IMG/VR virus record: IMGVR_UViG_3300029908_000017
Coordinates: 1-64,000 of that record
Reading direction: 5' to 3' (one strand)
DNA from: a virus
Length of the DNA stretch: 64,000 bases
The notes below the pieces were generated by a model. The model was not told the DNA's origin, made no database searches, and saw only the letters and a program-made list of their open reading frames with translations. The translations under genes and the position numbers were made by a program. Positions 16,601-56,325 of this stretch are shown piece by piece (position 1 is the first letter of the stretch; the number at the start of each line of letters is the position of its first letter).

Positions 16601-16768
16601 TTATATTTCCAACGCCCTTTCGTCTTTTAAATATATATCATTTTTATTTGGTTTATCTTTGATAATAATAATTGTTTCTTTTTTCATCTCTCGATTACCA
16701 TATCTTGAATGCTTGCCTTTATGTTGCCGGAAAGGCATTATGGCTTTTTCCTCAATTTCGAATGGCAT
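16601..16768 (-). CDS. 55-aa unannotated protein ending IYLKDERALEI
   Basis: Own translation MPFEIEEKAIMPFRQHKGKHSRYGNREMKKETIIIIKDKPNKNDIYLKDERALEI; stop 1 nt before the recombinase ATG; alternative starts at 16738 and 16687. Confidence 0.7.
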   Translation of the reverse strand: MPFEIEEKAIMPFRQHKGKHSRYGNREMKKETIIIIKDKPNKNDIYLKDERALEI

Positions 16769-16810
16769 TTTCTTCAATTTCGAATTGTTCCTGTAATGTC
16801 ATAATAAATC

Positions 16811-16835
16811 TGTCGAACGGGTTGGACGTTCGACA
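16811..16835 (-). terminator. Hairpin downstream of SSB (terminator or stabiliser)
   Basis: tgtcgaacg-N7-cgttcgaca; weak U tract. Confidence 0.5.
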
Positions 16836-16842
16836 ATCCTAA

Positions 16843-17931
16843 TTATTTCTTAGCTTCTAGAAAAGCACGAAGATCATCCTTATTGACGACCTTTCCACCG
16901 ACAATAACCTCATTGGTTGCTGCTGGTGTTACTGAAATCACCGATGCTACAGGCGCGGGCGGGACAGGAGGATTGAATGCTATTGCTGGGGCTACTGTTG
17001 GAGAAGCCGCAGGAGGTGCAGGAATAGTATAGGCTCCTGTATTTGTTGGTGTGGAGGCAGGTAAAGGCAGGGGTACACTTACAGTAGGCGCAGGAGGTGT
17101 AGGCAATGGATTAGTTGGAAAAGCTGCCACTGTTTTAAATCCTGCATAACCCTCCATACAAATATCGAAAACATTAGCTGGAAACATCTGGCGTAAGTCT
17201 CCAATAATTTCTTCTTTCATCTTTATCACAAATATTTCGTCGAGATTATAAAGATTTTCCGACAATGCGTATTGTTCGGGAATTACATATTTATAAGCAA
17301 TATTTGGAGAAATCTGCCATCCCCCATCCTTACCTACATCTGAATTTAACTTTAGAAATGTTCCAATCGCTGCGTTTACATCATTAAGCAACGGACTTTG
17401 TGACCCATCAGGTTGGGGTTGGTCCATCCATTTCGTTAATTGATCTGCACCTTTGTAAGCAGGTAAGTCCAATACATGGATTACCTCTTTTAAAGGTGCA
17501 GCGGCCTGCAACAACTTTAAAGGAGCTACATTAAAAGCAACTCGTTGTGTTACATGTCCGTAATTTGGATAAATAGTAAACTTTGTTGAATTATTTCCTT
17601 CTCCAGGTTTGACAGGTTTTGCTTGCTCTGGATACCTTGCACGAAACGCTCGTTCAAAATAACTAGCAGGATCGTCATTTAAATTATGTACATAATAATT
17701 TTTCTTCGCCTTGTCCAGACCAAACGCCTTACGAACAGAAAATGACTTGAACCATACTCCTTCTCCATTGCTATCGGCTTTGTAAGCAGGTAAAAATAAC
17801 ACGTACAGTCCTTCACGGTTATTGTCCTTATCAAATACTAGTTGTTTAACATCTGTGCGAATATAATTGAATAACGATGCTTGATCGATATTCGATCCTT
17901 CAAATTTTCGGCTTCCTTGTATAATTGGCAT
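16843..17931 (-). CDS. Probable single-stranded DNA-binding protein with Pro/Ala-rich linker
   Basis: V-x-FLPAY start, aromatic-rich core, next to the recombinase; assignment is largely by context. Confidence 0.55.
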   Translation of the reverse strand: MPIIQGSRKFEGSNIDQASLFNYIRTDVKQLVFDKDNNREGLYVLFLPAYKADSNGEGVWFKSFSVRKAFGLDKAKKNYYVHNLNDDPASYFERAFRARYPEQAKPVKPGEGNNSTKFTIYPNYGHVTQRVAFNVAPLKLLQAAAPLKEVIHVLDLPAYKGADQLTKWMDQPQPDGSQSPLLNDVNAAIGTFLKLNSDVGKDGGWQISPNIAYKYVIPEQYALSENLYNLDEIFVIKMKEEIIGDLRQMFPANVFDICMEGYAGFKTVAAFPTNPLPTPPAPTVSVPLPLPASTPTNTGAYTIPAPPAASPTVAPAIAFNPPVPPAPVASVISVTPAATNEVIVGGKVVNKDDLRAFLEAKK

Positions 17932-17938
17932 ATTTTAT

Positions 17939-18220
17939 TTATTGATTGGCTTCAAAAAGATTCTGAAACCATATATATTTTGGGTTTATTTTTTTACGTA
18001 TGTTTAATGACTCAGCTACTTTAAAATAATTATCGTATTCAATACTTAATTTTTTTAGTGTTTTTAATTTTGGTGATTTTTTAACTTTTTCGAATGAAAC
18101 ACGGTTAATATCCCATTCTTCATAGTGTAAGTCAACCTTTGAGAAAATCTTTTTTAAAGTTTTATCCAACAAAGCTTCTACGGCTCTTACATTATGCTTT
18201 GATAGATTTTTTATGTTCAC
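17939..18220 (-). CDS. Hypothetical protein
   Basis: Coupled to the ThiF gene. Confidence 0.6.
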   Translation of the reverse strand: MNIKNLSKHNVRAVEALLDKTLKKIFSKVDLHYEEWDINRVSFEKVKKSPKLKTLKKLSIEYDNYFKVAESLNIRKKINPKYIWFQNLFEANQ

Positions 18221-18825
18221 AAATGAAAGACCTTTTCCTTCGTAACAAGATTTCCTCTTACGGCCTGTAAAAACACTTGAACCATTGCAGCACCCACAAT
18301 GACAGGCATAGCATGCGAAATATTATTTTGTTTTTCATAATCAAGCAGACAACTTCCTCGTTCTGTTGAATCATCCAAATAAGAATTTCGAATGTCTGCT
18401 GGTACCTTGGAGTTGAAAATCAATCCTAGATTGGAACTACTTCGTCCATCAATCCAAAATAACTCAGGATGACTATCACCATATTCATAAAGTTTTTTAC
18501 GAATTTCCATACCATCGGGACCACTAAGGATTACATCATAATTCTTGAAATCTTTCTTTTCCATGAACCTGTCAATTGCAGTAATGGCGTACTTGTCTTC
18601 CATCACTTTGACTTTCTTTTTACCGAGATCTTCGAATTTATAATTTTGGTGCAATAAATTCTTGTCCGTAACTGACGCTTCATCGAAAACTGTGATTTCA
18701 GTATTCAAATAATCGAATTGCTTGCGATTATAACCAAAGTCATAAAGAAAATGAATGACCCATCCTGAAACACCACCCGCCCCAATAATACCGATTCTTT
18801 TATAATTCAATTTTTCAATGCTCAT
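18217..18825 (-). CDS. ThiF/MoeB/E1-like adenylating enzyme
   Basis: IIGAGGVSG, D-x-x-x-V-x-x-KNL-x-x-Q, GKKKV, D-x-x-x-x-R, WIDGR, and a lone Cys in RGSC. Confidence 0.9.
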   Translation of the reverse strand: MSIEKLNYKRIGIIGAGGVSGWVIHFLYDFGYNRKQFDYLNTEITVFDEASVTDKNLLHQNYKFEDLGKKKVKVMEDKYAITAIDRFMEKKDFKNYDVILSGPDGMEIRKKLYEYGDSHPELFWIDGRSSSNLGLIFNSKVPADIRNSYLDDSTERGSCLLDYEKQNNISHAMPVIVGAAMVQVFLQAVRGNLVTKEKVFHL

Positions 18826-19270
18826 TTTTTCTCCAGATTACTTCACTTTGAATTGTATCGTTGTCTAACCAAGTATATTTAATTATTTCTCCGTACTTAA
18901 TACTCTTAATATAATTGTATTTAAAATTCTGAAATAAATTTGCATAGTCAATTCCAGAATACCTAGCAGAGAATGATGGGTGTGTATGGAATGAACCGAA
19001 TAATTGCCAACCTCTACTAAGAAATGGTCCTACTAATTTGGCGAATTCATTATCATTTGGCTCATATAAAGCGTGTCCAATACTTTGGTTATGAAACTTA
19101 TTAGGAATTCTCACAAAGGCAAACACGTCGTCATCGTCAACTTTACCTTTAACGAGTAGTCCACCTGCTTCGTATTCCAAATCATTAAAGTCCGTTAAAT
19201 TAATAATTGTTGTGTCAGGGCTGTCCCACACGTCCATAACATGAGGTAATTTGTTAAATTGTGAGATCAT
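18815..19270 (-). CDS. JAB/MPN+ metallo-isopeptidase
   Basis: EAGGLL plus complete H-x-H-x7-S-x2-D (HTHPSFSARYSGID). Confidence 0.9.
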   Translation of the reverse strand: MISQFNKLPHVMDVWDSPDTTIINLTDFNDLEYEAGGLLVKGKVDDDDVFAFVRIPNKFHNQSIGHALYEPNDNEFAKLVGPFLSRGWQLFGSFHTHPSFSARYSGIDYANLFQNFKYNYIKSIKYGEIIKYTWLDNDTIQSEVIWRKNEH

Positions 19271-19823
19271 GTATTATTGCAACGATGTTAGCATCAATAA
19301 AATCAGATTCAATATTGTTTGGTACTTTGATGTCGAAGTATTTTTCCAAATTTTCTAATAGAATATTTTTACCCAAATTATTAAAGCTGGTCTTATCGTT
19401 GAATAATACTTCTTCAAACTGAATTATTCTTTTCAACTGATATTTTATCGATAACAACTGTAGTCGAAGATTGTATTTATCAACATTATGCCAAATCAGT
19501 TTAGTAATATTGTGCTCATTTATTTTACTCAACAATTCTACATAAACACGTTCCTCATTATCATCAGTGATTGAAATGCGAGACCATGTAAGTAGTCCGG
19601 TTCTTTGATCAATAATTTTTACAAAGCCTTTTACACCCTTCAACTTGGTTGTAAATGTATGGTTGCCCACGTCGGCCAACCATTTTTCTTCTTTGTCTTT
19701 GATGTCTTTTTCTTTTTTAATTGGATCAGTAAGCCTACCATCGGCTTTAAAGTCAGGTATCCATTTTAACAATTCTTCCCCTTGAAGGGGAGTAAACTCT
19801 AATTTTATAGCAGCTATACTCAT
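19254..19823 (-). CDS. Hypothetical protein in Ubl cassette
   Basis: Overlaps the JAB start. Confidence 0.7.
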   Translation of the reverse strand: MSIAAIKLEFTPLQGEELLKWIPDFKADGRLTDPIKKEKDIKDKEEKWLADVGNHTFTTKLKGVKGFVKIIDQRTGLLTWSRISITDDNEERVYVELLSKINEHNITKLIWHNVDKYNLRLQLLSIKYQLKRIIQFEEVLFNDKTSFNNLGKNILLENLEKYFDIKVPNNIESDFIDANIVAIIHDLTI

Positions 19824-19825
19824 AA

Positions 19826-20032
19826 TTAATCTAATTCAGTTGTTTTTTCGTATCCTCGAAGAATTGCAGTCTGTACATAATAATCGTAAAATCTGACAGT
19901 CTGATCCTCATATAATTGGTCTGCCACATCTAATGCATCATCTTCATTTCGCCACGCTTCTTTGACTATAATTTCACCCTCACTATCTTCTTGCAGCACC
20001 AGATAAATATATGTTTCGTTATTTATACTCAT
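19826..20032 (-). CDS. Small acidic hypothetical protein
   Basis: ATGA-coupled to the 729-aa gene. Confidence 0.6.
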   Translation of the reverse strand: MSINNETYIYLVLQEDSEGEIIVKEAWRNEDDALDVADQLYEDQTVRFYDYYVQTAILRGYEKTTELD

Positions 20033-22218
20033 GCAACGGCTACCTCTTGAATTTCTGGAATATTAGCAACTTCTTGTGCGATATCTTTTAATTCTTGATC
20101 AAGATTATCATTGATAACCGGTTCATTTGTATCTTCTACATCAACAGTTTCAAAATCCTGGTCAATAGGAGTTTCTTTGACATAATGCTTTAGGGTATAA
20201 ATTTCGTCAACCAATACCGAGTCATTATGCAACGCATACAATCTAGCCGCGAGATCATCATAACCTACACCTGTATCATGGCTTGAATTGACAATGCAAA
20301 TATAACCCTGGCTAGCTTCGTCAAATACTTTGCAATTTTCTTTATTCACAATATAGGTTGTCAGCTTGCCTTTGATACGGTAAAACTCTTTACCATCTTT
20401 TTTGATCAACTCCGCGCCTGTAGCTTCTACAGCCATTTTTAAGAATTCTTTAGATTTCTCAACCGCTAATGCGTGCTTTAAGTCTAAATAATCAACAACC
20501 GCAATAAGATCAAAATCTGTCAAATGCTCGGTAACTACTTCTTTTTCGATTTCAACCCCATCAGCATTCTTTTCTTTAACAATCTTCTTAAAGGTAGACG
20601 CTTCTTTTAGAATTGGCTTTAATTTGCTTCTTGCCCATTTATCTGTTTTTGTCTCTCCGTTACACCAATTAGCATTTGCCGATTTATTTAAAGCATATAC
20701 TTTTTTGATTAAATAATTTAATCTAACAGGTACTGTCTTCTCGATATTATCAATAGAGTTAATAACAAGATGTGGCTTTCTATCCACAATTCTAAAGAAC
20801 AATTTAGTGCATTCAGGATGAGGTAAGGGATCTGCCCAACTACCAACATAATCCTTGTCAATTTTTACACCTAGTCCTGCACTAATTGCATCCGTGGCCT
20901 TTAAATTCAAGACTGAAGTTTGTTTAAGGAAATTTGTGTAATTCAACTCGTCTTGAAAACACGAACAACGATAAATAACTTCTTCTAACTCATTGGCATT
21001 GATACGAATACCATTGATCTTACGATGACCGCTTGCCAAGTGCTTAGTCAACGTTAATGTAATTCCATTAATCTTGAACGACTCCAATGTAATTACACCA
21101 TCCGTATACGCGGATTCGTCAGCAATTTCAAAAGTCTTAGGTACATTCACTTCTTCTTGGACCCTCGCGCTTCTCCTCCATCCATATCCGTACTTACGAA
21201 TTTTCTTAATCTGCCGTACTTCTTTCTTTAATCCCGCACTCTCAAGTTCAGCCGCTTTGGCTTTCGCAATTTCACGGACAACTGAATAGATATCAAATTG
21301 ATTATGAATATCATAAACACCCATAAATATTTCAAATAGCTTAGGATATTCGAGAGTAACAGTATGATAAACAGCCGAATTAGCTGTGAACTTAATATTG
21401 TTAAACTCACCAGATTCCACTTCACCAGACGCTAGTTTATTAGCATAGACTAATGTAGTATTAGCATTGTATTCTCCTTCAAGGACAGCTAACCGAGTTT
21501 TCCAAATAGTTTTCTGGTCTTTTGTCAGTCCCTTCTCCATCTTTAAGCGATACAATACACTCTTTTCAGGATTAATAAAGAATCCATGATCCAACATATC
21601 TACGAATCTTGAATTAAATCGTAGAAGATGAAAAACTAATAGAATTTCATAAGTAAAAACATTTGCAACGGCGTATTTACTAATCAATTTATTTTTCTCA
21701 TGATACTGGTATACCTGAAAAAGATTATATTGATCGAGATAATCATATACTTTGTCCATGTGTGAGGCCATGAACTTGATAAACCTTCGACCATTTACAA
21801 TACGATAAGTTGTACCATTTACAATTTTTTCGATAGGTGCCTGCATGATAACCAATGGCCCATCACTATCATCAACAGATTGTCGAGTGTAATATTTTGA
21901 ATTTGTGATCTTATCACGAATTGCTCCATAACTACTATCAGTTACTAACTCATAATTATCGTTGCAAAAAGAATCCTCAAAATCATTGTCAGGCCAATTT
22001 GAGGTACCGCGAATTGCTTGATAATTTAATTTAAACAACGAATGTAGCGTAGGTAAATTTTCTATATAAAAATCCTGTACTTTAAAATAGAAATTAATAT
22101 CCTTGTTCTGTTCTTCCCAAGCCAATTCAAAATCTATTTTAACCTTCTTTAACTTTAATAATAGATTTTTTAATTTTACCAAATATTGTTTATTTAACTG
22201 CGAGTGATAAAATGCCAT
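20029..22218 (-). CDS. Large protein of Ubl cassette; C-terminal GYICIV domain
   Basis: 729 aa; RIKGKLTTY...GYICIV...DDLAARLYALHND resembles the C-terminal domain seen after DUF4132. Confidence 0.6.
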   Translation of the reverse strand: MAFYHSQLNKQYLVKLKNLLLKLKKVKIDFELAWEEQNKDINFYFKVQDFYIENLPTLHSLFKLNYQAIRGTSNWPDNDFEDSFCNDNYELVTDSSYGAIRDKITNSKYYTRQSVDDSDGPLVIMQAPIEKIVNGTTYRIVNGRRFIKFMASHMDKVYDYLDQYNLFQVYQYHEKNKLISKYAVANVFTYEILLVFHLLRFNSRFVDMLDHGFFINPEKSVLYRLKMEKGLTKDQKTIWKTRLAVLEGEYNANTTLVYANKLASGEVESGEFNNIKFTANSAVYHTVTLEYPKLFEIFMGVYDIHNQFDIYSVVREIAKAKAAELESAGLKKEVRQIKKIRKYGYGWRRSARVQEEVNVPKTFEIADESAYTDGVITLESFKINGITLTLTKHLASGHRKINGIRINANELEEVIYRCSCFQDELNYTNFLKQTSVLNLKATDAISAGLGVKIDKDYVGSWADPLPHPECTKLFFRIVDRKPHLVINSIDNIEKTVPVRLNYLIKKVYALNKSANANWCNGETKTDKWARSKLKPILKEASTFKKIVKEKNADGVEIEKEVVTEHLTDFDLIAVVDYLDLKHALAVEKSKEFLKMAVEATGAELIKKDGKEFYRIKGKLTTYIVNKENCKVFDEASQGYICIVNSSHDTGVGYDDLAARLYALHNDSVLVDEIYTLKHYVKETPIDQDFETVDVEDTNEPVINDNLDQELKDIAQEVANIPEIQEVAVA

Positions 22219-22250
22219 AAAAAAGCCCGTTGGTGTTTAATCCAACGGGC
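22219..22250 (-). terminator. Intrinsic terminator between Ubl gene and 729-aa gene
   Basis: gcccgttgg-N8-ccaacgggc-tttttt directly followed by ATG. Confidence 0.8.
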
Positions 22251-22269
22251 ATCTCCGTTTATTGATTAA

Positions 22270-22623
22270 TTAACCACCGATGACTCGTCCAACGATTTGT
22301 ACAGGAGGAGTAATGAATTTACCTGGAAAGGCAATATCTACTTTTGTCAGAGAAGACAGCAAATCACGTAACCGTAACTTATCGCTTTCAATAATCTTGT
22401 TATCGTCATCCGTACCATTAAACTTAGCAGATGTCTTAAAGATTCCATCGTTAATCACAGCCCAAAGCTTGTTGGTCTGGAAATGACTAAAGATACGTTC
22501 AACGGCTCCTTCTAAGTTTAGTTTAAAAGTTTCATGTCCGGCTTTACCAGTAACATGCAAATCGTAAACAGGTGCGTTCAAATCTAAAGCTACTTCTGCA
22601 ATTGTATTTTTGATTTCTTCCAT
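22270..22623 (-). CDS. Ubiquitin-like (beta-grasp) protein with C-terminal GG
   Basis: Ends VQIVGRVIGG; beta-beta-alpha-beta pattern (VYDLHVT/ETFKL/AVERIFSHF/WAVIND); in an operon with E1 and JAB. Confidence 0.7.
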   Translation of the reverse strand: MEEIKNTIAEVALDLNAPVYDLHVTGKAGHETFKLNLEGAVERIFSHFQTNKLWAVINDGIFKTSAKFNGTDDDNKIIESDKLRLRDLLSSLTKVDIAFPGKFITPPVQIVGRVIGG

Positions 22624-22625
22624 AA

Positions 22626-23144: not shown

Positions 23145-23150
23145 AATAGT

Positions 23151-41270: not shown

Positions 41271-42382
41271 AAATAATTAGCTTTAAACTTATTCAAAACA
41301 TCTTTAGTTGTACCTGAATTCAAACTATCTAGACATTCAATACCTAGCTGATAATTTTCATCTGTAAAAGTTCCTGACTCTACTAACGTAGCCTTAAAGA
41401 TATCAGAAAGATTATTGTTAGTTATTTCCGAACGAATATTCACGTTTTCAATAACTTGGTTATTCTCCTTCAATAATGTGGTTTTAACAATGGCATGTTC
41501 ATAAAGAAATACAAATTCAGGCAACTTGTTAAACATTCCTTTACTGTATTTTAAGATATATACAGGACGTTTACCTGTAGTACTTAAACTATGTTGAAGT
41601 TCTTTAATTTCTTTATTTTTGAAACTCTGTTTGTCTTTTTCAAATTCCTTATAGCTATCATCTGTAAGATCGAAATAATGAAAGTTACGAATCAATGGAT
41701 ATTCAATAAAGTTTAGTTTATTACCATTCCAATGAATATATCGTTTTTGATTAATCTCGTCTAACTTGGTTACACCTAGAGAGCCACAATAACCTAGAAA
41801 CTGTCCACTCGATAAATACTTATAAGCTCCTGAATGAATATCCCCTGCAATAATACCTTTAAGAGTAGGATGATTAATGACAGTTTCTTCCCAGTTAATA
41901 TGTAATGTTTTTTTCTCTTCGCAATAACCAAACAACAGTGGTTCTTGGTAATGTAAGAATATAAATTCAACAATATCTTTTTTTAGGTTTAGCTGTTCGG
42001 TTAGTTTTTGCAAAACTGCTTCAGAATTATCGCTATAGTCTACTCCTACAAATGTAGACTCAATATTTACAGATTCAAAATCACAGATGTTTTCCCAGTC
42101 CTTATTATCAATTTGTTTTGAATGATCGCCTGAGATAGCTACAGGAGTTATGTTATTTGATTTAAGTTTTTTATTTAGTGTCTTAACAAAATCTATTGAA
42201 TAGGCAGTGGGTTTATTTGTGTCGAATAAATCTCCACAAGAAATAAAATATTTAACCTTTAACTGTATGGCCTTCAATACAGCTAATTCAAGATAGTCGT
42301 AAAGGTCTTTCTTAAGCTCTTCATTGTTAAGTAGTGCTCTCTCTAAATGTACATCGGATACAACTAAAAAACTATTTGTCAT
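41267..42382 (-). CDS. SbcD/Mre11-like nuclease
   Basis: SDVH, GDLFD, GDH, H, GDIH and YCGS. Confidence 0.9.
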   Translation of the reverse strand: MTNSFLVVSDVHLERALLNNEELKKDLYDYLELAVLKAIQLKVKYFISCGDLFDTNKPTAYSIDFVKTLNKKLKSNNITPVAISGDHSKQIDNKDWENICDFESVNIESTFVGVDYSDNSEAVLQKLTEQLNLKKDIVEFIFLHYQEPLLFGYCEEKKTLHINWEETVINHPTLKGIIAGDIHSGAYKYLSSGQFLGYCGSLGVTKLDEINQKRYIHWNGNKLNFIEYPLIRNFHYFDLTDDSYKEFEKDKQSFKNKEIKELQHSLSTTGKRPVYILKYSKGMFNKLPEFVFLYEHAIVKTTLLKENNQVIENVNIRSEITNNNLSDIFKATLVESGTFTDENYQLGIECLDSLNSGTTKDVLNKFKANYL

Positions 42383-42648
42383 ATTACTCCTCTTCGAATT
42401 AAGTCATTAATATACTTTTCTTCCATTTCTAGAACTTCACTTCGAATATCACTAAAAAATTGCTTACCATCATAATTGATAGTCGCAACCCATGTCTGAA
42501 GGTTATTATCGAATTCTATTGTAGAAGCGCGTTCCACAGTAGCATTACCAGCTTTCGATTTTAATTTATCTACAAGATTCGAATGCAGAGCTTTGATTGT
42601 ACCGGAAGAATTTATAAATATGCTTTTATAATTCTTGATGAAGCTCAT
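42379..42648 (-). CDS. Conserved partner of the DUF1257/DUF2997 module
   Basis: I-x-x-x-G-x-I...RAS-x-IEF...W pattern; context. Confidence 0.5.
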   Translation of the reverse strand: MSFIKNYKSIFINSSGTIKALHSNLVDKLKSKAGNATVERASTIEFDNNLQTWVATINYDGKQFFSDIRSEVLEMEEKYINDLIRRGVI

Positions 42649-42832
42649 TTATTGTTTCTTCTTCGTATTCATCTGTATACAAACGAGTATTCTCTTTTGC
42701 ACCACCTAAAAACTTCTCCAACCGAGATGTCGCTTCTGCACAAGTAGGCCCAAACCCTTGTACATCCCCTATGGAAATATCTCCATTTTTTGCAATTTTA
42801 ACTTTATAAGATTGTTTTGACATATTATTCAC
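42626..42832 (-). CDS. DUF2997-like protein
   Basis: I-x-x-NG...VQGFG-x-x-C-x-EAT-x-x-LE-x-x-LG...T-x-EY. Confidence 0.7.
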   Translation of the reverse strand: MNNMSKQSYKVKIAKNGDISIGDVQGFGPTCAEATSRLEKFLGGAKENTRLYTDEYEEETINELHQEL

Positions 42833-43282: not shown

Positions 43283-43663
43283 TTAGTTAAGACAAAATTC
43301 AATAATTCCTTCATCCGTAGTATTGATTTCGTATTCCAATTCCTCTTCTTCAAAATATGCCTTGGTCAATTCAAAACTATATCGTTGTTTCAAACTATCC
43401 AGATTTTCACCAAGTTGTTGCGCAATTGAAGAATCATAAAAATCCCCATAAATTTTATATTCACCATCAATAAGGTTGATACCCAAATCGTAACCATCCT
43501 GAGGATTGACTGCTACGTAATCATAAATCGTTTCTCTAGCTGGATCATTACGATATGTACGTGCTTTAGTTTTTTCTACAATTCGCCAGCCGAAATTTTC
43601 CAATGATTTATCCAATAATTGGAAATTACTAATATTTGTTTTTATTTCAACGGTGTGACTCAT
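43283..43663 (-). CDS. DUF1257 (Ycf35-like) protein
   Basis: MSH-x-x-x-IKT...L-x-x-x-L-x-x-x-G...YDLG...D-x-Y...L-x-QRY. Confidence 0.75.
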   Translation of the reverse strand: MSHTVEIKTNISNFQLLDKSLENFGWRIVEKTKARTYRNDPARETIYDYVAVNPQDGYDLGINLIDGEYKIYGDFYDSSIAQQLGENLDSLKQRYSFELTKAYFEEEELEYEINTTDEGIIEFCLN

Positions 43664-44227: not shown

Positions 44228-45340
44228 TTATATTTCCAATGCTCGAAGATATTCTCCAGTAATTGAAGATATATCTGAAGTATTTTCAGCTACAGTTTTA
44301 ACATCTAACAAGAATTCTTTTAAAGCATTTCGGTCATCGACATTATCTTTACTTTTCAGATCTCGGTTTTCTGCAAGAAACGTCTGTACTTCTGTGATAC
44401 GTTCTTCTAACACTTTGTCACCAAAGATATTCAATTTTTCAAAATCTTGTATCTTTTTTAACAACGTGTTCTTATTAACATCAGAAACAACGTCGCCTTT
44501 ATTAATTTTATTAATAATTACAGCAAAAACACTATTTACACTTTCACGCAATTCTTTGATTGAGTTATCGACAAAATTGGTAATTTGTTCCAACTGTTTT
44601 GCAGCTTGTTGGTTATAATGTTCCTTGGCTTCGTTAACAGTGGCAGCAACTTGAGCTTCTTCTTCCAATAATACCCGAATATTAACCTCTTGTAGCTCGT
44701 TAGGCATATTAATACGGAATTCGGAATATTCGAAATTAAACTTTCCACGTATCTCATTTACTGATGGGTATGCCGGTCGTAGAACATCTGCATATTCTGG
44801 ATAAGCCGCAAGTGCTTCTGTTTTATATTGCTCGTAATTCTCTACAAACGAATCAACAAGAATATTAAATTCTTCCTTATAGGTCTCTAATTGTTTACGT
44901 ACCTCTTCCAGATTATGAAAAGCTACAAAATGTGCTTCCGCAATAGGAAAGCGATTACTCATTCGCTTAAGATACAATCTAGCACGTTGTTCAATTTGAG
45001 CAAATTGATTAAACAATACTGGTTTAACCAGCATCTTTTTGCCAAGTTTAATAATATCTGGGACTTTTTCAATTTCCAGGTCCGATTCTTTTAATGAAGT
45101 AGACATACTCCACCTTGAAATATGAATAGATATTAGTACACCTGTACTAAACAACTTATCATAGTAACGATCAAGAACTCGGATTTGATTGTGATTTTCC
45201 AATTCCTCAACTAATTGTTGCCCTCGTTGGTTTACAGGGGTGTCCAGAACCTCTGTAACACTTATTGATTCTTCCGATTGTTCCAATATATCAATATTAG
45301 AATCCACTAACTCTTCGATAACTTTCTTATGTCTTCCCAT
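44228..45340 (-). CDS. DUF3150-like protein
   Basis: I-x-I-x-x-W...LG-x-K...FV...YP...KF-x-F pattern; usual neighbour of DUF1257/AAA. Confidence 0.65.
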   Translation of the reverse strand: MGRHKKVIEELVDSNIDILEQSEESISVTEVLDTPVNQRGQQLVEELENHNQIRVLDRYYDKLFSTGVLISIHISRWSMSTSLKESDLEIEKVPDIIKLGKKMLVKPVLFNQFAQIEQRARLYLKRMSNRFPIAEAHFVAFHNLEEVRKQLETYKEEFNILVDSFVENYEQYKTEALAAYPEYADVLRPAYPSVNEIRGKFNFEYSEFRINMPNELQEVNIRVLLEEEAQVAATVNEAKEHYNQQAAKQLEQITNFVDNSIKELRESVNSVFAVIINKINKGDVVSDVNKNTLLKKIQDFEKLNIFGDKVLEERITEVQTFLAENRDLKSKDNVDDRNALKEFLLDVKTVAENTSDISSITGEYLRALEI

Positions 45341-45342: not shown

Positions 45343-46911
45343 TTATTTAACCTCAATTAATTCACCTTTGTTATTCAATGTATACCAAGTATTAGCTTTA
45401 ATACCATCTTCTCCTGCATAACCGACAACTATACGATTACGGTTACCGTCATCCCAAACCAAAGATAAGCAACCATTTTCTCCGACTTTTGTTTTTCCAT
45501 ACAATCCTGCCACAACTGCAATAGTATCTTTACCAACAGCTGCTGCTGTGCTGTAATATCCTGAACTCGCTGCTTTGCTGGAATTACCTGAACTCTCTGC
45601 TTTGCTGTAATCTCCTGAACTCGCTGCTGTGCTGTAATCTCCTGAACTCGCTGCTGTGCTGGAATCTCCTGAACTCGCTGCTTTGCTGTAATCTCCTGAA
45701 CTCGCTGCTGTGCTGTAATCTCCTGAACTCGCTGCTTTGCTGGAATTACCTGAACTCACTGCTGTGCTGGAATCTCCTGAACTCGCTGCTTTGCTGGAAT
45801 CTCCTGAACTCGCTGTTTTGCTGTAATATCCTGAACTCACTGCTTTGCTGGAATATCCTGAACTCGCTGCTTTGCTGTAATCTCCTGAACTCGCTGTTTT
45901 GCTGGAATTACCTGAACTCACTGCTTTGCTGTAATCTCCTGAACTCGCTGCTGTGCTGGAATTACCTGAACTCGCTGCTTTGCTGTAATCTCCTGAACTC
46001 GCTGCTGTGCTGTAATATCCTGAACTCGCTGCTTTGCTGTAATCTCCTGAACTCGCTGTTTTGCTGGAATCTCCTGAACTCGCTGCTGTGCTGGAATTAC
46101 CTGAACTCACTGCTTTGCTGTAATCTCCTGAACTCGCTGCTGTGCTGGAATTACCTGAACTCGCTGCTTTGCTGTAATCTCCTGAACTCGCTGCTTTGCT
46201 GTAATCTCCTGAACTCGCTGCTTTGCTGTAATCTCCTGAACTCGCTGCTGTGCTGGAATCTCCTGAACTCGCTGCTGTGCTGGAATCTCCTGAACTCGCT
46301 GTTTTGCTGGAATCTCCTGAACTCGCTGCTGTGCTGGAATTACCTGAACTCACTGCTTTGCTGTAATCTCCTGAACTCGCTGCTTTGCTGTAATCTCCTG
46401 AACTCGCTGCTGTGCTGTAATATCCTGAACTCGCTGCTTTGCTGTAATCTCCTGAACTCGCTGTTTTGCTGGAATCAAGTTTTTTAACTTTTAAAATTAA
46501 ATCGTTAACCTGTTTATCAATTTTTGTTTTATTGCAAAACAAGCGAGCAATTAATTCTGGTGTTGCGTCGTTTAATTCCCAAACTTTATTCAATACATCT
46601 GAATACTGTGGTTCGGAAAAATAATCTAAGGCTACCTCCTTACCCTTTAAAGCGTTCATTAAACTTGTATAATGTGACGTAATGGAAGAAACTTGGTGTT
46701 GTGTTAATGTAGAAATATCATCGTTCTTAACAACATTTTCCAAAACGAAATCACCAATCCCATTCCATTCGCATTCAACAAATCTTTTTTGTTTATGAAC
46801 ACTATCGTTTTCTGTCCATTTAAACAATTCAACAGCCTTACTATGGCTATTACCAGGTTCATGGGCTATAACTCCATCACGTCTAACAACAATACTATGA
46901 AAATCACACAT
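45343..46911 (-). CDS. Nonapeptide-repeat (SSGDYSKAA) beta-solenoid phage protein
   Basis: 34 repeats plus conserved C-terminal GEDGIKANTWY cap; ATG 46911 (MCDFHS) is the likely start. Confidence 0.8.
   Translation of the reverse strand: MCDFHSIVVRRDGVIAHEPGNSHSKAVELFKWTENDSVHKQKRFVECEWNGIGDFVLENVVKNDDISTLTQHQVSSITSHYTSLMNALKGKEVALDYFSEPQYSDVLNKVWELNDATPELIARLFCNKTKIDKQVNDLILKVKKLDSSKTASSGDYSKAASSGYYSTAASSGDYSKAASSGDYSKAVSSGNSSTAASSGDSSKTASSGDSSTAASSGDSSTAASSGDYSKAASSGDYSKAASSGDYSKAASSGNSSTAASSGDYSKAVSSGNSSTAASSGDSSKTASSGDYSKAASSGYYSTAASSGDYSKAASSGNSSTAASSGDYSKAVSSGNSSKTASSGDYSKAASSGYSSKAVSSGYYSKTASSGDSSKAASSGDSSTAVSSGNSSKAASSGDYSTAASSGDYSKAASSGDSSTAASSGDYSTAASSGDYSKAESSGNSSKAASSGYYSTAAAVGKDTIAVVAGLYGKTKVGENGCLSLVWDDGNRNRIVVGYAGEDGIKANTWYTLNNKGELIEVK
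45541..46476. repeat. 27-bp tandem repeat, 34 full copies plus a partial (coding)
   Basis: Unit cctgaactcgctgctttgctgtaatct with six variable positions. Confidence 0.97.
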
Positions 46912-47317
46912 AATTTTAATATTCCAATTCAATAACTATTTCACCACTAGGTCTTGTCCATTCCAGATTACTGTACCTAACCAAATTTGCGCAGCGATAT
47001 TCAATTTCAGCTTCTCTCGCTACGAATACAACGTCTTTATCAAGTATATCTTTGCGATTTTCCAATATTTGAATTATTAATTCTCTATAAGTCATAATTT
47101 TATAGATCAATATCTTTTTTAAAATCGTAAACAATAACATTGTCAGGTAATGATTCTTCCTGAAAATAACCTACTTCTATCAATGTATGCTGTGCTTTTT
47201 GCAGTACACGTGATTCTACATTTGTAGGATCTTTCACCTTTAAAACTAATGTATAGATATCAAACAAAGCATATAGCATTTCTGAATATTCACGACTTCT
47301 CAATTTTTCAAAATAAC

Positions 47318-48913
47318 TCATATCTCCATACTTCTTAAAATAGTTTCCGAGTTTTCAATAATTTCACCATCTTTTCCAGCAATTTGTAACTTACCTTTTG
47401 CGGAATCTCTCATACTTTTTAAACGTTCTGGATACATCTCAGCGTTAGGCTTGAATCTTTTAATCTCTGCTAACAAATCTTCTTCTAATACTTCTCGGCT
47501 ATCATGATAGAAAGCACGAAACAAAGCAGATTTGATTAGTTCTTCAATCTCCGAGCCAATATAATTGTTTGTTAATTTAGCTAATTTTTTTAAACTAAAC
47601 TTTTCAGGATCACGATTATATTTTATCAATAGCTTTTTAAATATATCCTCACGTTCTTCTAAATCAGGCAGGTCTACCCAAAAAGCAGCATCGAATCGAC
47701 CCGGACGTAATAAGGCAGGAGGTAGAATTAAATGATTGTTACAGGTACCGATAAAGAATGGTGCAGAATCATTCCCACGATCTGCCAAATACGTCAGAAA
47801 CGCTCCAAGCATTCGTGAGCCTACACCCGAATCACCAATACCCGATGTAGCGTTTGAACTCAATGACTTTTCAATTTCATCAATCAAAACCACACATTTG
47901 CCTATCGATTCAATGGTCTGTAAGACTTGTCGTAAGTTGCGTTCAGAATCTCCTACATGAGAAGAAAACAACTTCCCAATATCCAATAAAAATAAAGGTA
48001 CTTTAAATTCTGTAGAAATAGCACGAGCGGTAATGCTCTTACCACCACCAGGAATACCACAAAGAATTATACCACGAGGAGTACAAAGACCATATTCTTT
48101 TGCTTCTTTACTAAATGCCCGTTTTCTAAGATTGACCCAATTCTTTAGACCTTCAAATCCACCAATATTATCAAAACTAATGCCCGTTTCAATGTATTCT
48201 AATAAACTATTCTTTTTAATTTGAGTTATCTTTTCATTAAAAACAATCTTTATAAACTCGTCATTGAACTCACCCTTCGTACAAACAAAGGCAAAGGCCA
48301 AAGCAGACTCTACTTCGTTATTAGCCATACCTTTACAGGCTTCAATAACGTTCTCAATAAAATCTTCGTCTAATTTTGCTTCTGGTTTATTTTTGGCTTT
48401 TCTAGAAACGTTGGCACTGATTAATGTGTCATTAAACTTTTCACGTATTGCTTTTTTATCAGGTAACTCATATTCCACTATCTGAATTTCCTTTTCTAAC
48501 TCCAAAGGGATATTGAAATTTGGAGAAATAAAAATCAAGGTGTTGCCATCTCTTCGTAAATAACTACTGAGATTACGTAAACACCGAATATAATCTTTTG
48601 ATTTCATCTTACTATCCATCTCTAGATGGAAGTCAAGAAGAACGTAAGCACTTCGTTTTTCGTTACGGCCTGCTGAGTTAAGAAGAAATTCAAATAACTT
48701 ATTTGGGTCATCCGTACCTTTAATTATATTGCCGTCTTTATTCAAGTCTACTAAACCAGTAATACAATCCCAGCGATAAAAGGTGCCGAACTTCTCACGT
48801 TTAGGCAATATCGTTAGTAGGTCATTGGTAACACGTTTTTCTTCATGTGTATTGATTACCAGCATTGGATAACTGGCTTTTGCGTAATTTAATATTTTAT
48901 CGTTAAAATTCAT
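47318..48913 (-). CDS. Ycf46-like AAA+ ATPase
   Basis: GIPGGGKS, IDEIEK, CN, LPPALLRPGRFD; inactive N-terminal AAA-like domain (T-x-EE-x-R, LLDFH). Confidence 0.9.
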   Translation of the reverse strand: MNFNDKILNYAKASYPMLVINTHEEKRVTNDLLTILPKREKFGTFYRWDCITGLVDLNKDGNIIKGTDDPNKLFEFLLNSAGRNEKRSAYVLLDFHLEMDSKMKSKDYIRCLRNLSSYLRRDGNTLIFISPNFNIPLELEKEIQIVEYELPDKKAIREKFNDTLISANVSRKAKNKPEAKLDEDFIENVIEACKGMANNEVESALAFAFVCTKGEFNDEFIKIVFNEKITQIKKNSLLEYIETGISFDNIGGFEGLKNWVNLRKRAFSKEAKEYGLCTPRGIILCGIPGGGKSITARAISTEFKVPLFLLDIGKLFSSHVGDSERNLRQVLQTIESIGKCVVLIDEIEKSLSSNATSGIGDSGVGSRMLGAFLTYLADRGNDSAPFFIGTCNNHLILPPALLRPGRFDAAFWVDLPDLEEREDIFKKLLIKYNRDPEKFSLKKLAKLTNNYIGSEIEELIKSALFRAFYHDSREVLEEDLLAEIKRFKPNAEMYPERLKSMRDSAKGKLQIAGKDGEIIENSETILRSMEI

Positions 48914-49293: not shown

Positions 49294-49326
49294 TTCTAGA
49301 GGCTTCTATAAAGTTTTGATAACCAC

Positions 49327-49707: not shown

Positions 49708-50022
49708 ATTATGATTGTTTTATCGAATTGGTTAATACTTCCAATTCTTCCTTCGTTAATTTCGATTTTGCTTGTTCAGCAATTTTTTCAAGCCTTAAAT
49801 TTTCAGCATTATTCAAGCTCCACTCTTCCATTACGTTATAAATGGAATTAATATCTGCGTCTACAAAATCATCAGTTCTAACTTGCGTATACTCACCATC
49901 TCCTAAAATATTACGAAATTGAATAAGCCTTACATTATCTTTTGAAAAAAATGATGTAACTGCTATCTTGTTATCCAACGCATAACAAAACAAATCAAAT
50001 AACTTAATCTTAAACTCTTCAC

Positions 50023-50436: not shown

Positions 50437-50900
50437 ACTAATTCGAAATCCTTTATGGATTGTGTAACTGCTTGGTTATAATAAGGATAGTAAACAGTTA
50501 TTTCGTGGTTATTCATATCCACGTCTTCTACTATTCCTTCCTGCCCATAATAATTATTAAAATCTAAATCTTTAAATAAATATTTTTGGGAATTAATTAC
50601 TCGATCCCCCTTCTTTATTCGGGGGTATCGCGTTCTGGATCGTTTCATCAATTGGGATTTCTGGATCGGGTAACAAGGTCAATGACTTTAACGCTGAAGG
50701 TTGGAAGGTTGTGGTTGGAGCCAGTTTTGGCTTTTTAATTTTTGGTGTATAATATTTTAATGTTTTTGAGTTCATGATTTAAGTATGAGTTGTGATTCTC
50801 TAATTTTATTATTCTCTTTAATAATACTTCGGTCGATTAAACTTTTTTTAACATGCGTGGCGTGCTTTAACGGTTGTCAGTTAGCTAAACTCCAACATTC

Positions 50901-50929
50901 TTTACAATTCATAACTGTTATCATAGTAT
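50901..50929 (+). promoter_or_regulatory. sigma70-like promoter of terminase, near-leaderless
   Basis: TTTACA-N17-TAGTAT-N9-ATG(50939). Confidence 0.55.
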
Positions 50930-50938
50930 GTAACGTAC

Positions 50939-52654: not shown

Positions 52655-52657
52655 TCA

Positions 52658-52963
52658 TTATTTATTCTCCAATACTGTTAACCATGCAGAAGTATGGCCA
52701 TACTTCTTACCATGTTTCAACATCCAGTTAATTAGACTATCTGCGTTACCATTAGCCCTTGTAGCAACCCAACTAGTCAGCACATGAGAGGAATTACAAT
52801 CTTTAGGAATATAATAAGTACTTCCCCAGCTATAATTTTCAATCTTTTCACTCCAATCATAGAAAACTGTCGCAACAAATGGAATATCATGTTCTTTGCA
52901 TTTGTTAACAGCTTCTAATAATAAAGGAGCAATTTCCTTATCGTATATCTCTTCTTTACTCAT
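52658..52963 (-). CDS. Hypothetical phage protein
   Basis: KE-x-IYD-x-EIAPL...C-x-EH-x-IPF pattern. Confidence 0.65.
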   Translation of the reverse strand: MSKEEIYDKEIAPLLLEAVNKCKEHDIPFVATVFYDWSEKIENYSWGSTYYIPKDCNSSHVLTSWVATRANGNADSLINWMLKHGKKYGHTSAWLTVLENK

Positions 52964-53097
52964 AATCTAAATGCAATCTTTGTGAGTATTATTAATACTC
53001 CGATGATTTCTAACCCTGCAATAGCCAGTAATGTATAAATTGTGATTATTTTACTTTTTGATAATTTTCGTTTTCTCATAATTTTATTAACTAATGA

Positions 53098-53121
53098 CTG
53101 GCGACTATTTATAATCGCCAG
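53098..53121 (-). terminator. Hairpin downstream of 3D-domain gene
   Basis: Minus strand ctggcgattat-aa-atagtcgccag; no strong U tract. Confidence 0.4.
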
Positions 53122-53135
53122 AGAATTAATCAATG

Positions 53136-53609
53136 TTAATTACATGCTAATTCTATCTGAGTACTTCGGATACTGTGTTCGTTGATTCGTTTACTTGAAT
53201 AACAGGCAAACGGCTTATATTTGTTTAGTATTGTATACATTTCTTTGTTATCAGTTTTTTGTTTTACGGTTTTTACTTCTTTGTACTTTACGCCGAATTC
53301 ACGCACAGCCTTCATTGACGATACGTAAATATCGTAACGATTTGGTCCTTTGATTTTACTGCCGCAATCGGAAACAATAAATACACCCATATCTTGAATA
53401 TATATCTTTTCTCCCAATTGGTGATACCGTAAATCAGCCGCACATTGACCTACTTCTAATCGTTGACTCTGGCAATTTAAGGCTCCATATGGTTGACTGT
53501 CCCTTTCATTTTCGTTGTAAGCAGTCAGTTTGGCAATTTCGCCAAACGAAGATACTGCTGTGATTAATAATAATACACTCGCTATCGCGAATGTTTTCAA
53601 CTTTCCCAT
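53136..53609 (-). CDS. Secreted 3D-domain (MltA-like) peptidoglycan hydrolase
   Basis: Signal peptide, TAY, AAD and D-x-G-x-x-IKG-x-x-R-x-DIY. Confidence 0.8.
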   Translation of the reverse strand: MGKLKTFAIASVLLLITAVSSFGEIAKLTAYNENERDSQPYGALNCQSQRLEVGQCAADLRYHQLGEKIYIQDMGVFIVSDCGSKIKGPNRYDIYVSSMKAVREFGVKYKEVKTVKQKTDNKEMYTILNKYKPFACYSSKRINEHSIRSTQIELACN

Positions 53610-53624
53610 TTTGTCTCCTTTGTT

Positions 53625-54173
53625 TTAGGGTTCCATTTTACCAACATATTCGATCACATAATTGATATGATAATCGAATAATTCCTGTAAAGCTTGATTC
53701 TTGTCCGTGTCATCCGAAGGATTACATTTTGGTAGAATCGCCGAAGAAAACAATTCGGGAGCTTTACTAAAACCAAAATCATAGAAAATTTTACCAACGT
53801 ATAAATTAATATCGGATGAAAACTCTAGAGCTTCATGTCTTATTAAATAATATTCAGCCAAAGATTTGATAATTTCTTCTATCTGTAAAGGAGAAACTAT
53901 ATCACCATCGGCAGGAACATTAGAAAGAATATGCCCACATGTCTCGTAGACATTCCAATTCGTCGCGAAATTATTAGATGTTAATACTTCTATCGCTGCA
54001 TTTAATTTATCGACTTGTAAATCTTCCAAGGTTATAGCGTAATCCCGTTCAATTTCATCCCTAATCAATTGGTTGTCCCATTCCAAAGCTTCGGGGCCGT
54101 AATTACGTAGAAAAGCTATTAACAACGCAATTGGAGGAGCATTGATATCTGTATATATTTGAGCAGTAAGCAT
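53625..54173 (-). CDS. Conserved phage protein, probably virion-associated
   Basis: YGPEALEWD...DKL-x-AA pattern; has its own promoter. Confidence 0.5.
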   Translation of the reverse strand: MLTAQIYTDINAPPIALLIAFLRNYGPEALEWDNQLIRDEIERDYAITLEDLQVDKLNAAIEVLTSNNFATNWNVYETCGHILSNVPADGDIVSPLQIEEIIKSLAEYYLIRHEALEFSSDINLYVGKIFYDFGFSKAPELFSSAILPKCNPSDDTDKNQALQELFDYHINYVIEYVGKMEP

Positions 54174-54179
54174 TAATTA

Positions 54180-54208
54180 ATTTTAGTTATTAAAATGATG
54201 ATTGTCTA
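54180..54208 (-). promoter_or_regulatory. sigma70-like promoter, near-leaderless
   Basis: TAGACA-N17-TAAAAT-N6-ATG(54173). Confidence 0.65.
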
Positions 54209-54463
54209 GTTTACTGTTGATTCATTCAAACTAAGACCACTAGGCAAATCAGGTAACTCTCTCCAATATATAGGATCTTCTCCTGAGTCCGTATAACGGG
54301 TGTTATCAGGTGTCACCCATCCTTTATAAGATGGATCACATTGACCTGTCATAAATTCAAATGGAGTGGAGTAATGTCCACTATCACGCACGGTTAGAAC
54401 CCATTTTTTAAGGTCAGGTAATTTTACTTTAACGCTTATCCACCCGTATTGAATGTCAGTCAT
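54206..54463 (-). CDS. DUF551-like protein
   Basis: WISVK-x-x-LP...VL...YW-x-x-LP. Confidence 0.7.
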   Translation of the reverse strand: MTDIQYGWISVKVKLPDLKKWVLTVRDSGHYSTPFEFMTGQCDPSYKGWVTPDNTRYTDSGEDPIYWRELPDLPSGLSLNESTVN

Positions 54464-55153
54464 TTACACTTCTCCTCTTCCATCAGCCCTTCGCCTTCGG
54501 TGATGGTAATTTCCTTAACGGCGGTTACTTTATAACCAGGAAATGAAAATTTCAAAGCTTCTTCTCGTGAAGCATATGGTCCGTGGATTTCAATATTTCC
54601 TAATCCCCTACCAATAATCTCGATAATCCAACAAGTTCGCTTCACCGGCTCTTTTTTGAGTAGAAATAAATCTAACGTGCTTTCAACATTCTTCCAAAGA
54701 ATCCCTTCCTCAGATACAAACTTGGGCGAGATTTCATTTTCAGGTAAAAAAACAACACGAAAATATTCTAGGGCTTTAGTAAAATGTGCCATTTGCATGA
54801 CCTTCCCTCCATCTCTAGTCCTCACCCATTCAGGATGTTTGAGGACTTCTTCAAGTGGCTCGTCTGTGAAGGGGCGCAGACCGTATGGTATATCTTTTAA
54901 TTTATTTTTGTTCATATCAATTCTCGTCTTCAATTCCTAATAAAGCACGTACAACTTCTTCATGTTCTCCCCAATTATCGAAACGCTCATGACCCATGCA
55001 ATTATCTCCTGAATCTCTTTGAGGGGCTATTCCCGATCCCTTGCATACACAGCATTTCCGAGTTTTCCATTTTCCTCCACAGGTTGGACAAAGTTTGCTG
55101 CTCATTGAGGTGGAGTAACCGGAGCTATTTTCTTCGTTCATAGTTATAACCAT
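54460..55153 (-). CDS. Two hypothetical ORFs (54460..54933; 54917..55153 with CxxCxG motifs)
   Basis: Coupled ORFs. Confidence 0.55.
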
Positions 55154-55557
55154 TCCTGAAATTGGCTCTGCATATTTGAATAAAACAATTTTTTAAACCC
55201 TAACTTTTGTAATAATGAAGCACAACCTGAACACGGCTTACTATTATTCAACTTTCCATTTCGATCAATACGAATATTTACAAAAGTAATATCCGAACAA
55301 TCTTCTCTACCATATTTTAATACACACGACATTTCACTATGCGTACCAGTGGTGTTACCAATATGTACATTTTGACGGTTTACATACCTATATTTTAAGT
55401 TCTTAGTATTAGTTTTTGAAGAGTTGACTCCAATCGAAACAACTCTGTTTTTTCGTAACATGAATGTTACATGGTGATTCCGAATATCTTCTCTAGGATT
55501 TGGAGCCAACGCCCTGGCGATTTCCACAAGTTTATTAAATTTCGAGTGCCCGTTCAT
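55144..55557 (-). CDS. Zn-dependent cytidine/dCMP deaminase-fold protein
   Basis: HSE and SKPCSGC motifs. Confidence 0.8.
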   Translation of the reverse strand: MNGHSKFNKLVEIARALAPNPREDIRNHHVTFMLRKNRVVSIGVNSSKTNTKNLKYRYVNRQNVHIGNTTGTHSEMSCVLKYGREDCSDITFVNIRIDRNGKLNNSKPCSGCASLLQKLGFKKLFYSNMQSQFQEWL

Positions 55558-55876
55558 CTTTTAGATATATATTTTTATCGGTTTTTATAGGTATAGAATT
55601 TTCAGCTTGTTCAGGAATTTCTTGTAATGTAGACATTAACTTTTTATAAATACTGGCAACCTGCTTTTGAGTAAGTCCCAGACTTACCGAATCGGCTATA
55701 TTCGCTCGACTAAATGCACCAAAATTAGAATATTGGCGTAAATTGCTGGCTAACCCTGTCCCTGTGTATGCAATGGTTGTTTGATCTTTATCTAACCCTT
55801 GGTCTGCCCCAATAAATAAAGGATCATCATCAAAATATTGATTCCCTCTTACTCCAATGGGGTAGGAGATGGTCAT
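55535..55876 (-). CDS. Hypothetical protein ending IYLKDERALEI
   Basis: ORF track; shared C-terminal tag. Confidence 0.75.
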   Translation of the reverse strand: MTISYPIGVRGNQYFDDDPLFIGADQGLDKDQTTIAYTGTGLASNLRQYSNFGAFSRANIADSVSLGLTQKQVASIYKKLMSTLQEIPEQAENSIPIKTDKNIYLKDERALEI

Positions 55877-56325
55877 ATTTCCAAGTCCCTTTCATACTTT
55901 AAATACAACGACTTATCTACTTTTTTTGTAATAGTTTTTACATTAATAGCAGTAGGTAACGAAGGAGAAACATTAAGAGAAGTTATAGGAGATGTATTCT
56001 CCGAAGTATTATGACCCAATAAACGCAAAAAATTATTGTCCATAGTGGCACGTATTTGATCTGAATATGCATTTCCAATAATCCGTTGTGCCTCAACATT
56101 GGCTAATGCCAACTGATTGATTATAGATATACGCTCTCCATATTCTCGATCAATTACTTCAAGATCATTGCTTGAAAATTGTGATCTCGCGTAGTCTATT
56201 AAATCTGGCTGATTTTCTCGATAATCGTCGTTATAAAGAAAATCACGTAACGTAGATTTCGGTACATGAACAAGCTTCGTACCTTTAAACGGTTTTACCG
56301 GGCATCTAGAAAGACCTGTTAGCAT
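55873..56325 (-). CDS. Hypothetical protein ending LYLKYERDLEI
   Basis: ORF track; shared C-terminal tag. Confidence 0.75.
   Translation of the reverse strand: MLTGLSRCPVKPFKGTKLVHVPKSTLRDFLYNDDYRENQPDLIDYARSQFSSNDLEVIDREYGERISIINQLALANVEAQRIIGNAYSDQIRATMDNNFLRLLGHNTSENTSPITSLNVSPSLPTAINVKTITKKVDKSLYLKYERDLEI

Follow-up and report, generated by a model that had tools for sequence, protein, structure and literature searches.

A C-terminal peptide shared by a Cdc48/Ycf46-like AAA+ ATPase and four other proteins of a phage

Why would an AAA+ ATPase, a helical protein encoded close to it and three small proteins of one phage all finish on nearly the same five residues? The question is raised by IMG/VR virus record IMGVR_UViG_3300029908_000017, a contig of 74,376 bp (G000), in whose first 64 kb (positions 1 to 64,000, the window) five genes of the minus strand close with R-x-[LM]-E-I. 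An initial annotation, made from the letters of the DNA, took this peptide for a docking or degradation tag. We show that the tail is real and under selection, a C-terminal motif that runs through the lineage and goes with an uncharacterised AAA+ module of phages. The tagged proteins are:

16601..16768, minus strand: open reading frame (ORF) of 55 residues (aa), ends IYLKDERALEI; tail codons 16604-16618
44228..45340, minus strand: DUF3150-like helical protein, 370 aa, ends GEYLRALEI; tail codons 44231-44245
47318..48913, minus strand: Cdc48/Ycf46-like AAA+ ATPase, 531 aa, ends ILRSMEI; tail codons 47321-47335
55535..55876, minus strand: 113-aa protein, ends IYLKDERALEI; tail codons 55538-55552
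55873..56325, minus strand: 150-aa protein, ends LYLKYERDLEI; tail codons 55876-55890

Occurrence and conservation of the tail

Translation of these reading frames returns exactly the C-termini that the annotation had listed. In a six-frame scan of all 74,376 bp, R.[LM]E[ILV] followed by a stop codon occurs precisely five times, i.e. at the ends of these genes and nowhere else, and in the 24,246 residues of the called genes the strict motif is found five times at a terminus and never internally. The annotation had suggested a comparison with chance, and this clearly favours the motif: composition predicts 0.0024 terminal occurrences against the five observed (Poisson P ~6e-16). In a test free of any motif definition, the last 30 residues were shuffled 2000 times, and a C-terminal 3-mer common to four proteins, as here, came up in only two of these shuffles. 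The five tagged proteins are a lower bound, because CheckV puts the completeness of the contig at 36%. The two copies of IYLKDERALEI differ at six of their 11 codons and every difference is synonymous, just as first described.

The tail is best understood from the ATPase, a classic-clade AAA+ protein (Cdc48/p97-like, Ycf46 group) and putative hexameric unfoldase. It matches Pfam AAA (8.3e-26) and AAA_lid_3 (2.5e-6), and partially the NCBIfam models of CDC48, FtsH and PAN. In its AlphaFold2 (AF2) model, with a mean predicted local distance difference test (pLDDT) score of 87.6, a well-folded N-terminal alpha/beta domain is followed by the AAA domain and lid, and residues 511-531 form a disordered tail (pLDDT ~50-64). 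The top Foldseek matches of the whole chain are the D1-D2 regions of p97, Cdc48, Rix7 and NVL (~550 columns, E 1e-22). Since the alignment spans D1 and D2, the N-domain (residues 1-235) is a degenerate D1-like domain; the active AAA domain follows it, and the disordered extension comes last. Cellular Ycf46-like ATPases end 20-30 residues earlier than the phage ones, which marks the tail as a phage-type extension.

Orthologs of the ATPase keep [ML]R.[LMI].I. Homologs of ~45% identity have MRKLSI, LRTIDI, IRKLRI or similar, either terminal or before a short acidic extension, and among ATPases of 29-34% identity the ends are RVLDL in gp96 of mycobacteriophage Corndog (29% identity), RQLDM in G007 (a complete relative of 71 kb and 61% GC) and RTLDI in the relative G006. 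Conservation in orthologs, which the annotation had named as a check, therefore holds, with R-x-Φ-x-Φ (Φ, hydrophobic residue) kept at 29-50% identity, at the C-terminus or close to it. We conclude that the tail is the C-terminal signature of the phage-type Cdc48/Ycf46-like ATPase, copied onto its neighbours in many phages. Corndog gp96 is present in infected cells only and absent from virions, according to proteomics (PMC4351075). In the closest relative, G004, the ATPase gene is split into ORFs of 300 and 222 aa with ~350 nt between them (L019 10001-11922, plus strand); no Rfam intron family matches at the split, which may be due to an insertion, to an unknown intron or to an error of assembly or frame.

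The copying is clearest in the conserved helical neighbour. The protein at 44228..45340 belongs to DUF3150 (PF11348; E 6.5e-19, 68.7 bits for a gathering cut-off of 24.9), and its nearest ESM Atlas clusters are also DUF3150, mostly viral. Its 21 DUF3150-like orthologs end GEY[FL]R[KRN][LI].[IVL]; conservation over the final ten residues (0.83 vs a mean of 0.64) is among the highest in the family. The AF2 model is mostly helical and makes the tail a short terminal helix (residues 357-367, pLDDT ~72-76). With this model Foldseek found nothing significant, and VIA-align found only generic four-helix bundles (Z 8-11.5), the bundle being C-terminal. Between the ATPase and DUF3150-like genes, which adjoin in most relatives, this phage has two ORFs of 73-74 aa and a 529-aa protein (45343-46932, minus strand). 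The latter contains Gly-rich repeats of collagen type, and its C-terminal domain is YdhT-like (NCBIfam 6.7e-43, PHROG 4433).

Corndog, G007 and G006 have in common a trio made of the ATPase, a gp95-like protein and a gp93-like protein. Homology between the gp95-like neighbours and the DUF3150-like protein is unsupported, as an HMM (hidden Markov model) search came back empty and hhalign gave E 0.15. The acidic tail of Corndog gp95 holds GRAIDF and GYALDF, and the gp95-like neighbour in G006 has GRALDL internally and SRALDL at its end. As a family, gp95-like C-tails are acidic, probably disordered, and carry two or three tandem Φ-L-D-Φ motifs of the forms R[ST][AS]FLD[LFV], GRA[LI]D[LF] and [RY]ALD[LF] (L035, Corndog, 6664-7464; L057 10221-11012; G007 65240-66133). 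The gp93-like protein, conserved beside them, is Cys/His-rich and ~113 aa long.

Were the five proteins unrelated, as first thought? No relationship links the ATPase with the DUF3150-like protein, or either of them with the small proteins, but the three small proteins are related over their C-terminal ~20 residues. The last 20 residues of the 113-aa and 150-aa proteins align at 60% identity, and a MAFFT alignment reveals a short N-terminal P-F-x-x-x-K-G-K stretch common to the 55-aa ORF and the 150-aa family. The five are thus better read as three lineages. The 150-aa family counts seven members in all, from a profile search of 1.8 billion representatives, and every one of them has a conserved N-domain of ~70 aa, a linker hypervariable in length and sequence, and a tail [DEN][DEH]R.[LI][ED][IL]. 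This is the layout of a short linear motif on a flexible tether. The N-domain matches no Pfam family (a resemblance to DUF3820 is unsupported) and the 113-aa protein matches no Pfam or PHROG family. Among IMG/VR loci, those of the small-protein family come from G004 only, where two small proteins are also tagged and end DR.LEI.

Beyond these families, the tail is found over a wide range of loci. Neither megablast nor tblastn with DUF3150 retrieved cultured close relatives, and a single-protein query of IMG/VR gave no match; an alignment query did retrieve relatives. In 30 IMG/VR loci around related ATPases, 40 of 850 ORFs end R.[LMIV].[ILVM], vs ~2 expected. These include the DUF3150-like neighbour (GEYFRKL[ES][VI]) and a ~120-aa protein (EHRKL.[IVL]) encoded directly upstream of Mre11 (L001 13997-14398, equivalents in L003-L027). 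The latter has a WGR-like pattern, for which a single weak Pfam match (E 0.019) does not allow a firm assignment, and BLASTP found no homolog of it in the window. At the place where relatives encode it, the window has an 89-aa ORF (42379-42648) ending RRGVI. In G007, a second ORF, coding by its codon-position GC, ends RELDM.

Over 42 distinct tails the consensus reads E(-8), R(-5; invariant because the tails were chosen for it), K/A(-4), L(-3, 88%), E/S/D(-2) and I/V/L(-1). The disordered ATPase tail, the hypervariable linker with its conserved tail in the 150-aa family and the conserved ends of DUF3150 orthologs are what one finds in short linear motifs. The last residues also tend to go together by genome: LEI four times and MEI once in this phage, LEI three times in G004, LEV twice in G001, LDM twice in G007, LD[IL] in G006, and LD[IL] or LDF across the G006/Corndog group. 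For DUF3150 and WGR-like tails, agreement of the last two residues within a genome exceeds that of shuffled pairings (p ~0.006, from 10 distinct pairs and ignoring kinship). This pattern in the sequences is suggestive of a shared and co-evolving putative reader.

Candidate readers of the tail

What might this reader be? The tail most likely addresses all five proteins to one putative binding site, and we see an even chance that R-x-[LM]-x-[ILV], placed at the C-terminus or close to it, serves the phage Cdc48/Ycf46-like AAA+ machine as a short linear docking motif. In support of this, the peptide ends the ATPase extension, its conserved neighbour and several proteins that are unrelated in the rest of their sequence, in most cases behind a linker that is variable or disordered. 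All tails would plug into one site, most likely on the ATPase ring itself (its pseudo-ATPase, D1-like domain) or on the obligate helical partner, so that the tag would hold a protein to the unfoldase, whether as client, adaptor or competitor. The ATPase's own tail might fill the same site, for auto-regulation or ring stacking. The tandem copies in gp95-like proteins fit multivalent binding to an oligomer or ring and hence count in favour of docking on the ATPase machine.

The machine may remodel DNA-repair or replication complexes. We propose this because the tagged genes lie in or beside the replication-recombination region, one of them directly upstream of RecA and, in relatives, the WGR-like one directly upstream of Mre11. 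The genes around the tagged ones are indeed mainly devoted to DNA replication and recombination: a RecA-like gene directly downstream of the 55-aa ORF, a dCMP-deaminase-like gene directly downstream of the 113-aa gene, and further genes for Mre11/SbcD-like and SbcC-like proteins, a DnaB-like helicase, a primase, a second helicase and a DNA polymerase. The large terminase is encoded on the opposite strand, just beyond the ATPase cluster.

Why the ATPase rather than another member of the module? The annotation proposed recruitment to one receptor, perhaps an AAA/DUF1257/DUF2997 machine or a host chaperone or protease; the two other genes of this machine are untagged here:

43283..43663, minus strand: DUF1257-like protein, 126 aa (Pfam DUF1257 E 0.0087; 5e-4 in the genome search, below the curated cut-off)
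42626..42832, minus strand: DUF2997-like protein, 68 aa (PF11211 at 42665-42802, E 4e-5, below the curated cut-off)

The link with the AAA+ protein is supported, the tail being a signature of the ATPase family copied to its neighbours. DUF1257-like and DUF2997-like genes also occur in close relatives. However, DUF1257 and DUF2997 were undetected in Corndog and G007, whose ATPases are tailed, which makes them unlikely as a universal receptor. JAB, discussed below, gave no match there either, and by BLASTP the ATPase is the only protein that this phage has in common with Corndog, G007 or G006. By elimination, the ATPase machine is thus the most economical reader. In the cultured Rhizobium phage RHph_I4 (L063 5674-8996), the ATPase, a 212-aa protein, DUF1257 and DUF2997 are annotated one after the other. 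The C-terminus of the 212-aa protein, RRAVKL, agrees with the motif; that of the ATPase, GKRAGMSLDS, does so less well.

Several points weigh against docking on the ATPase machine. The receptor was chosen solely by elimination, and in a contig at this level of completeness a phage protein encoded outside it could be the receptor. That an ATPase bears the tag of its own clients is unusual, and in the AF2 monomer its tail is docked nowhere in cis. Some orthologs gain or lose a residue after the motif (RKLV$, RKLNVR$, MRKLSIAIGNDEE$, where $ is the C-terminus), which leaves the binding geometry loose. Finally, part of the matching of tails within genomes may come from shared ancestry or gene conversion.

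Some of these points lend themselves to a different reading, in which the tails dock on a third party outside the AAA+ module, either a conserved host hub (a protease or chaperone adaptor site, such as the ClpX N-domain that reads SspB-type tails) or a phage protein beyond the part of the genome at hand. Phages that differ widely in host and GC content retain the motif, which would be expected of a universal host target no less than of a phage target inherited along with it. The undocked ATPase tail and the incomplete contig are compatible with it too, and the SspB tether LRVVK resembles the Φ-R-x-Φ-x-Φ form. Yet, the last residues change from one phage lineage to another and tend to agree among the tails of one genome, which a fast-evolving phage receptor explains better than a conserved host site, and the tail always accompanies the ATPase family. 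We hold a third party to be rather unlikely.

It is somewhat more doubtful that the tail is a degron. In that case it would be an unstructured signal at the C-terminus by which tagged proteins enter a pore, either that of the phage unfoldase or that of a host AAA+ protease, and which times their removal. The ATPase does have the fold of a p97/Cdc48-like unfoldase, and the tails are disordered or linker-attached with hydrophobic ends, like ssrA-type tags, though they are not LAA-like in sequence. But the ATPase and its conserved partner are themselves tagged, and in some orthologs the motif is covered by an acidic extension or repeated internally in tandem, which is easier to reconcile with docking than with the reading of a free C-terminus. 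Nor was a peptidase partner identified: family scans, made with no dedicated 20S search on proteins of a contig that is 36% complete, found no peptidase family besides JAB.

This JAB peptidase belongs to a ubiquitin-like cassette (18217-22623, minus strand), which also holds a 729-aa protein without family match:

18217-18825, minus strand: ThiF-type E1 (Pfam 2.8e-9)
18815-19270, minus strand: Prok-JAB peptidase (Pfam 1.7e-7)
22270-22623, minus strand: candidate ubiquitin-like protein (Ubl), 117 aa, ends VIGG (GRVIGG)

Might the E1 and JAB proteins (18217-19270) read the tail as a mimic of the R-x-Φ-x-x end of the Ubl? ThiF is found in this phage and in four of five closely related contigs, where it forms a conserved block together with JAB and a protein of ~220 aa, and position -5 of the Ubl tail is likewise Arg and position -3 hydrophobic. 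Yet, Corndog and the complete G007 have tailed ATPases and no JAB match, which rules out ThiF/JAB as a universal reader. Furthermore, E1 enzymes act on small C-terminal residues, and the tags, which end in I, V or L and not like the VIGG of the phage Ubl, differ from such substrates. It is very improbable that this system is the reader. The ~220-aa protein of the ThiF/JAB block starts with an IIDIET stretch and looks like a DEDD exonuclease.

Least credible, and in our view largely refuted, is the idea that the peptide has no function and that the likeness is a by-product of DNA-level signals (translational coupling, ribosome-binding sites, overlapping starts) or of recent duplication. We tested translational coupling because four of the five stops of tagged genes abut or overlap the next start codon, and two of these stop/start junctions have in common a 17-nt string, TTGGAAATATAATATGA. 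The stop of the 55-aa ORF lies 1 nt before the ATG of the RecA-like gene, and the start of the 113-aa gene overlaps the stop of the 150-aa gene (ATGA). However, no Shine-Dalgarno motif was found upstream of this phage's genes, where the sequence is A/T-rich, and TGGA[AG]A is common throughout the genome. Together with the synonymous codons of the identical tails, this leads us to reject a DNA-level signal such as a ribosome-binding site or coupling. Since the peptide is also kept by orthologs of quite different DNA, in relatives of 33%, 40%, 42%, 56%, 61% and 65% GC, the signal is at the protein level, and the annotation was right to see selection on the peptide rather than on the DNA. The dCMP-deaminase-like gene (55144-55557) has its ATG inside the tail codons of the 113-aa gene, which it overlaps by 23 nt in another frame (55535-55557). 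This overlap may be the source of some of the synonymous differences in that copy.

Known docking tails

The logic of a shared docking tail is known, though the sequence of this one matches none of the proteasome-activator, p97, SspB, clamp-binding and SSB tails. The closest precedents are the proteasome-activator tails, namely HbYX of PAN, Rpt and archaeal Cdc48, and the C-terminal GQYL common to mycobacterial Mpa and Bpa (PMC4254994, PMC8142254). In these, as may be the case here, a short C-terminal peptide on an AAA+ ring and on a structurally unrelated second protein enters the same pockets of one partner. The phage tail differs from them in lacking the penultimate Tyr (among the 42 distinct tails, E, S or D stands at -2 and never Tyr), in its invariant Arg at -5, and in being placed on five or more proteins, small ones included.

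The disordered C-terminal tail of p97/Cdc48 (DDLYG) is bound by cofactors with PUB and PUL domains. The likeness lies in a D1-D2-type AAA+ fold whose disordered C-terminal tail serves, here by prediction, as a docking peptide. But p97 alone is tailed and its cofactors hold the reader domain, whereas in the phage the putative cofactors carry the ATPase's own tail. The C-terminal XB tether of SspB (LRVVK) binds the N-domain of ClpX, and several unrelated proteins use similar tethers. There too a Φ-R-x-Φ-type peptide ends a flexible linker and tethers an adaptor to an AAA+ unfoldase, as putatively here; unlike the phage ATPase, ClpX is without the motif itself, and the phage protein has no zinc-binding N-domain.

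In DNA metabolism, hub-binding tails include the beta-clamp-binding motif QL[SD]LF and the acidic tail of SSB, DDDIPF. These resemble the phage tag in being short, often C-terminal and present on many unrelated replication and repair proteins, and the tagged genes lie in or beside just such a region. The phage tails have no Gln, no terminal Phe pattern and an invariant Arg; their hydrophobic register differs from that of QL[SD]LF or QLxLxL, and no clamp or SSB was identified as a partner. Most tails also show the PDZ class II pattern (Φ-x-Φ-COOH, at -3 and -1), for which a free carboxylate is required. Yet, many ATPase orthologs extend past it (AIGNDEE), the DUF3150 tail is one residue longer or shorter in some orthologs, and the copies in gp95-like proteins are internal. 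Finally, the clustering of ATPase, DUF3150-like, DUF1257-like and DUF2997-like genes recalls the cellular set of Ycf46 (AAA+), Ycf35 (DUF1257) and DUF2997, and the DUF3150 proteins of mobile elements, but cellular Ycf46-like ATPases are without the C-terminal extension that bears the motif. The same tag on an ATPase and on its putative partners is the unusual feature of this system. In the literature on DUF3150, DUF1257/DUF2997, phage Ycf46 and the Corndog AAA protein, we found no publication on the tail.

Significance for phage biology

The ATPase module (AAA+, DUF3150 or gp95-like, often with DUF1257 and DUF2997) is widespread in mycobacterial, rhizobial and uncultured phages and has no known function. 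The tail offers an experimental handle on it: the peptide can serve as bait for the reader, and in each genome the tagged proteins point to the likely partners of the machine. If the reader is the ATPase, these phages would encode a tag-and-unfoldase system acting on accessory proteins of DNA repair and replication, and annotation could place dozens of orphan small proteins in one pathway by their last five residues.

One might go further and see in these tails a private address-tag system, in which a lineage-specific C-terminal peptide co-evolves with the reader site of the ATPase machine and marks a changing set of phage proteins for tethering or remodelling, here the recombination and repair accessories near RecA and Mre11/Rad50. 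We put this forward tentatively, as a possibility that deserves attention although the balance is still somewhat against it. If true, it would be a viral analogue of tag-directed unfoldase targeting, so far undescribed.

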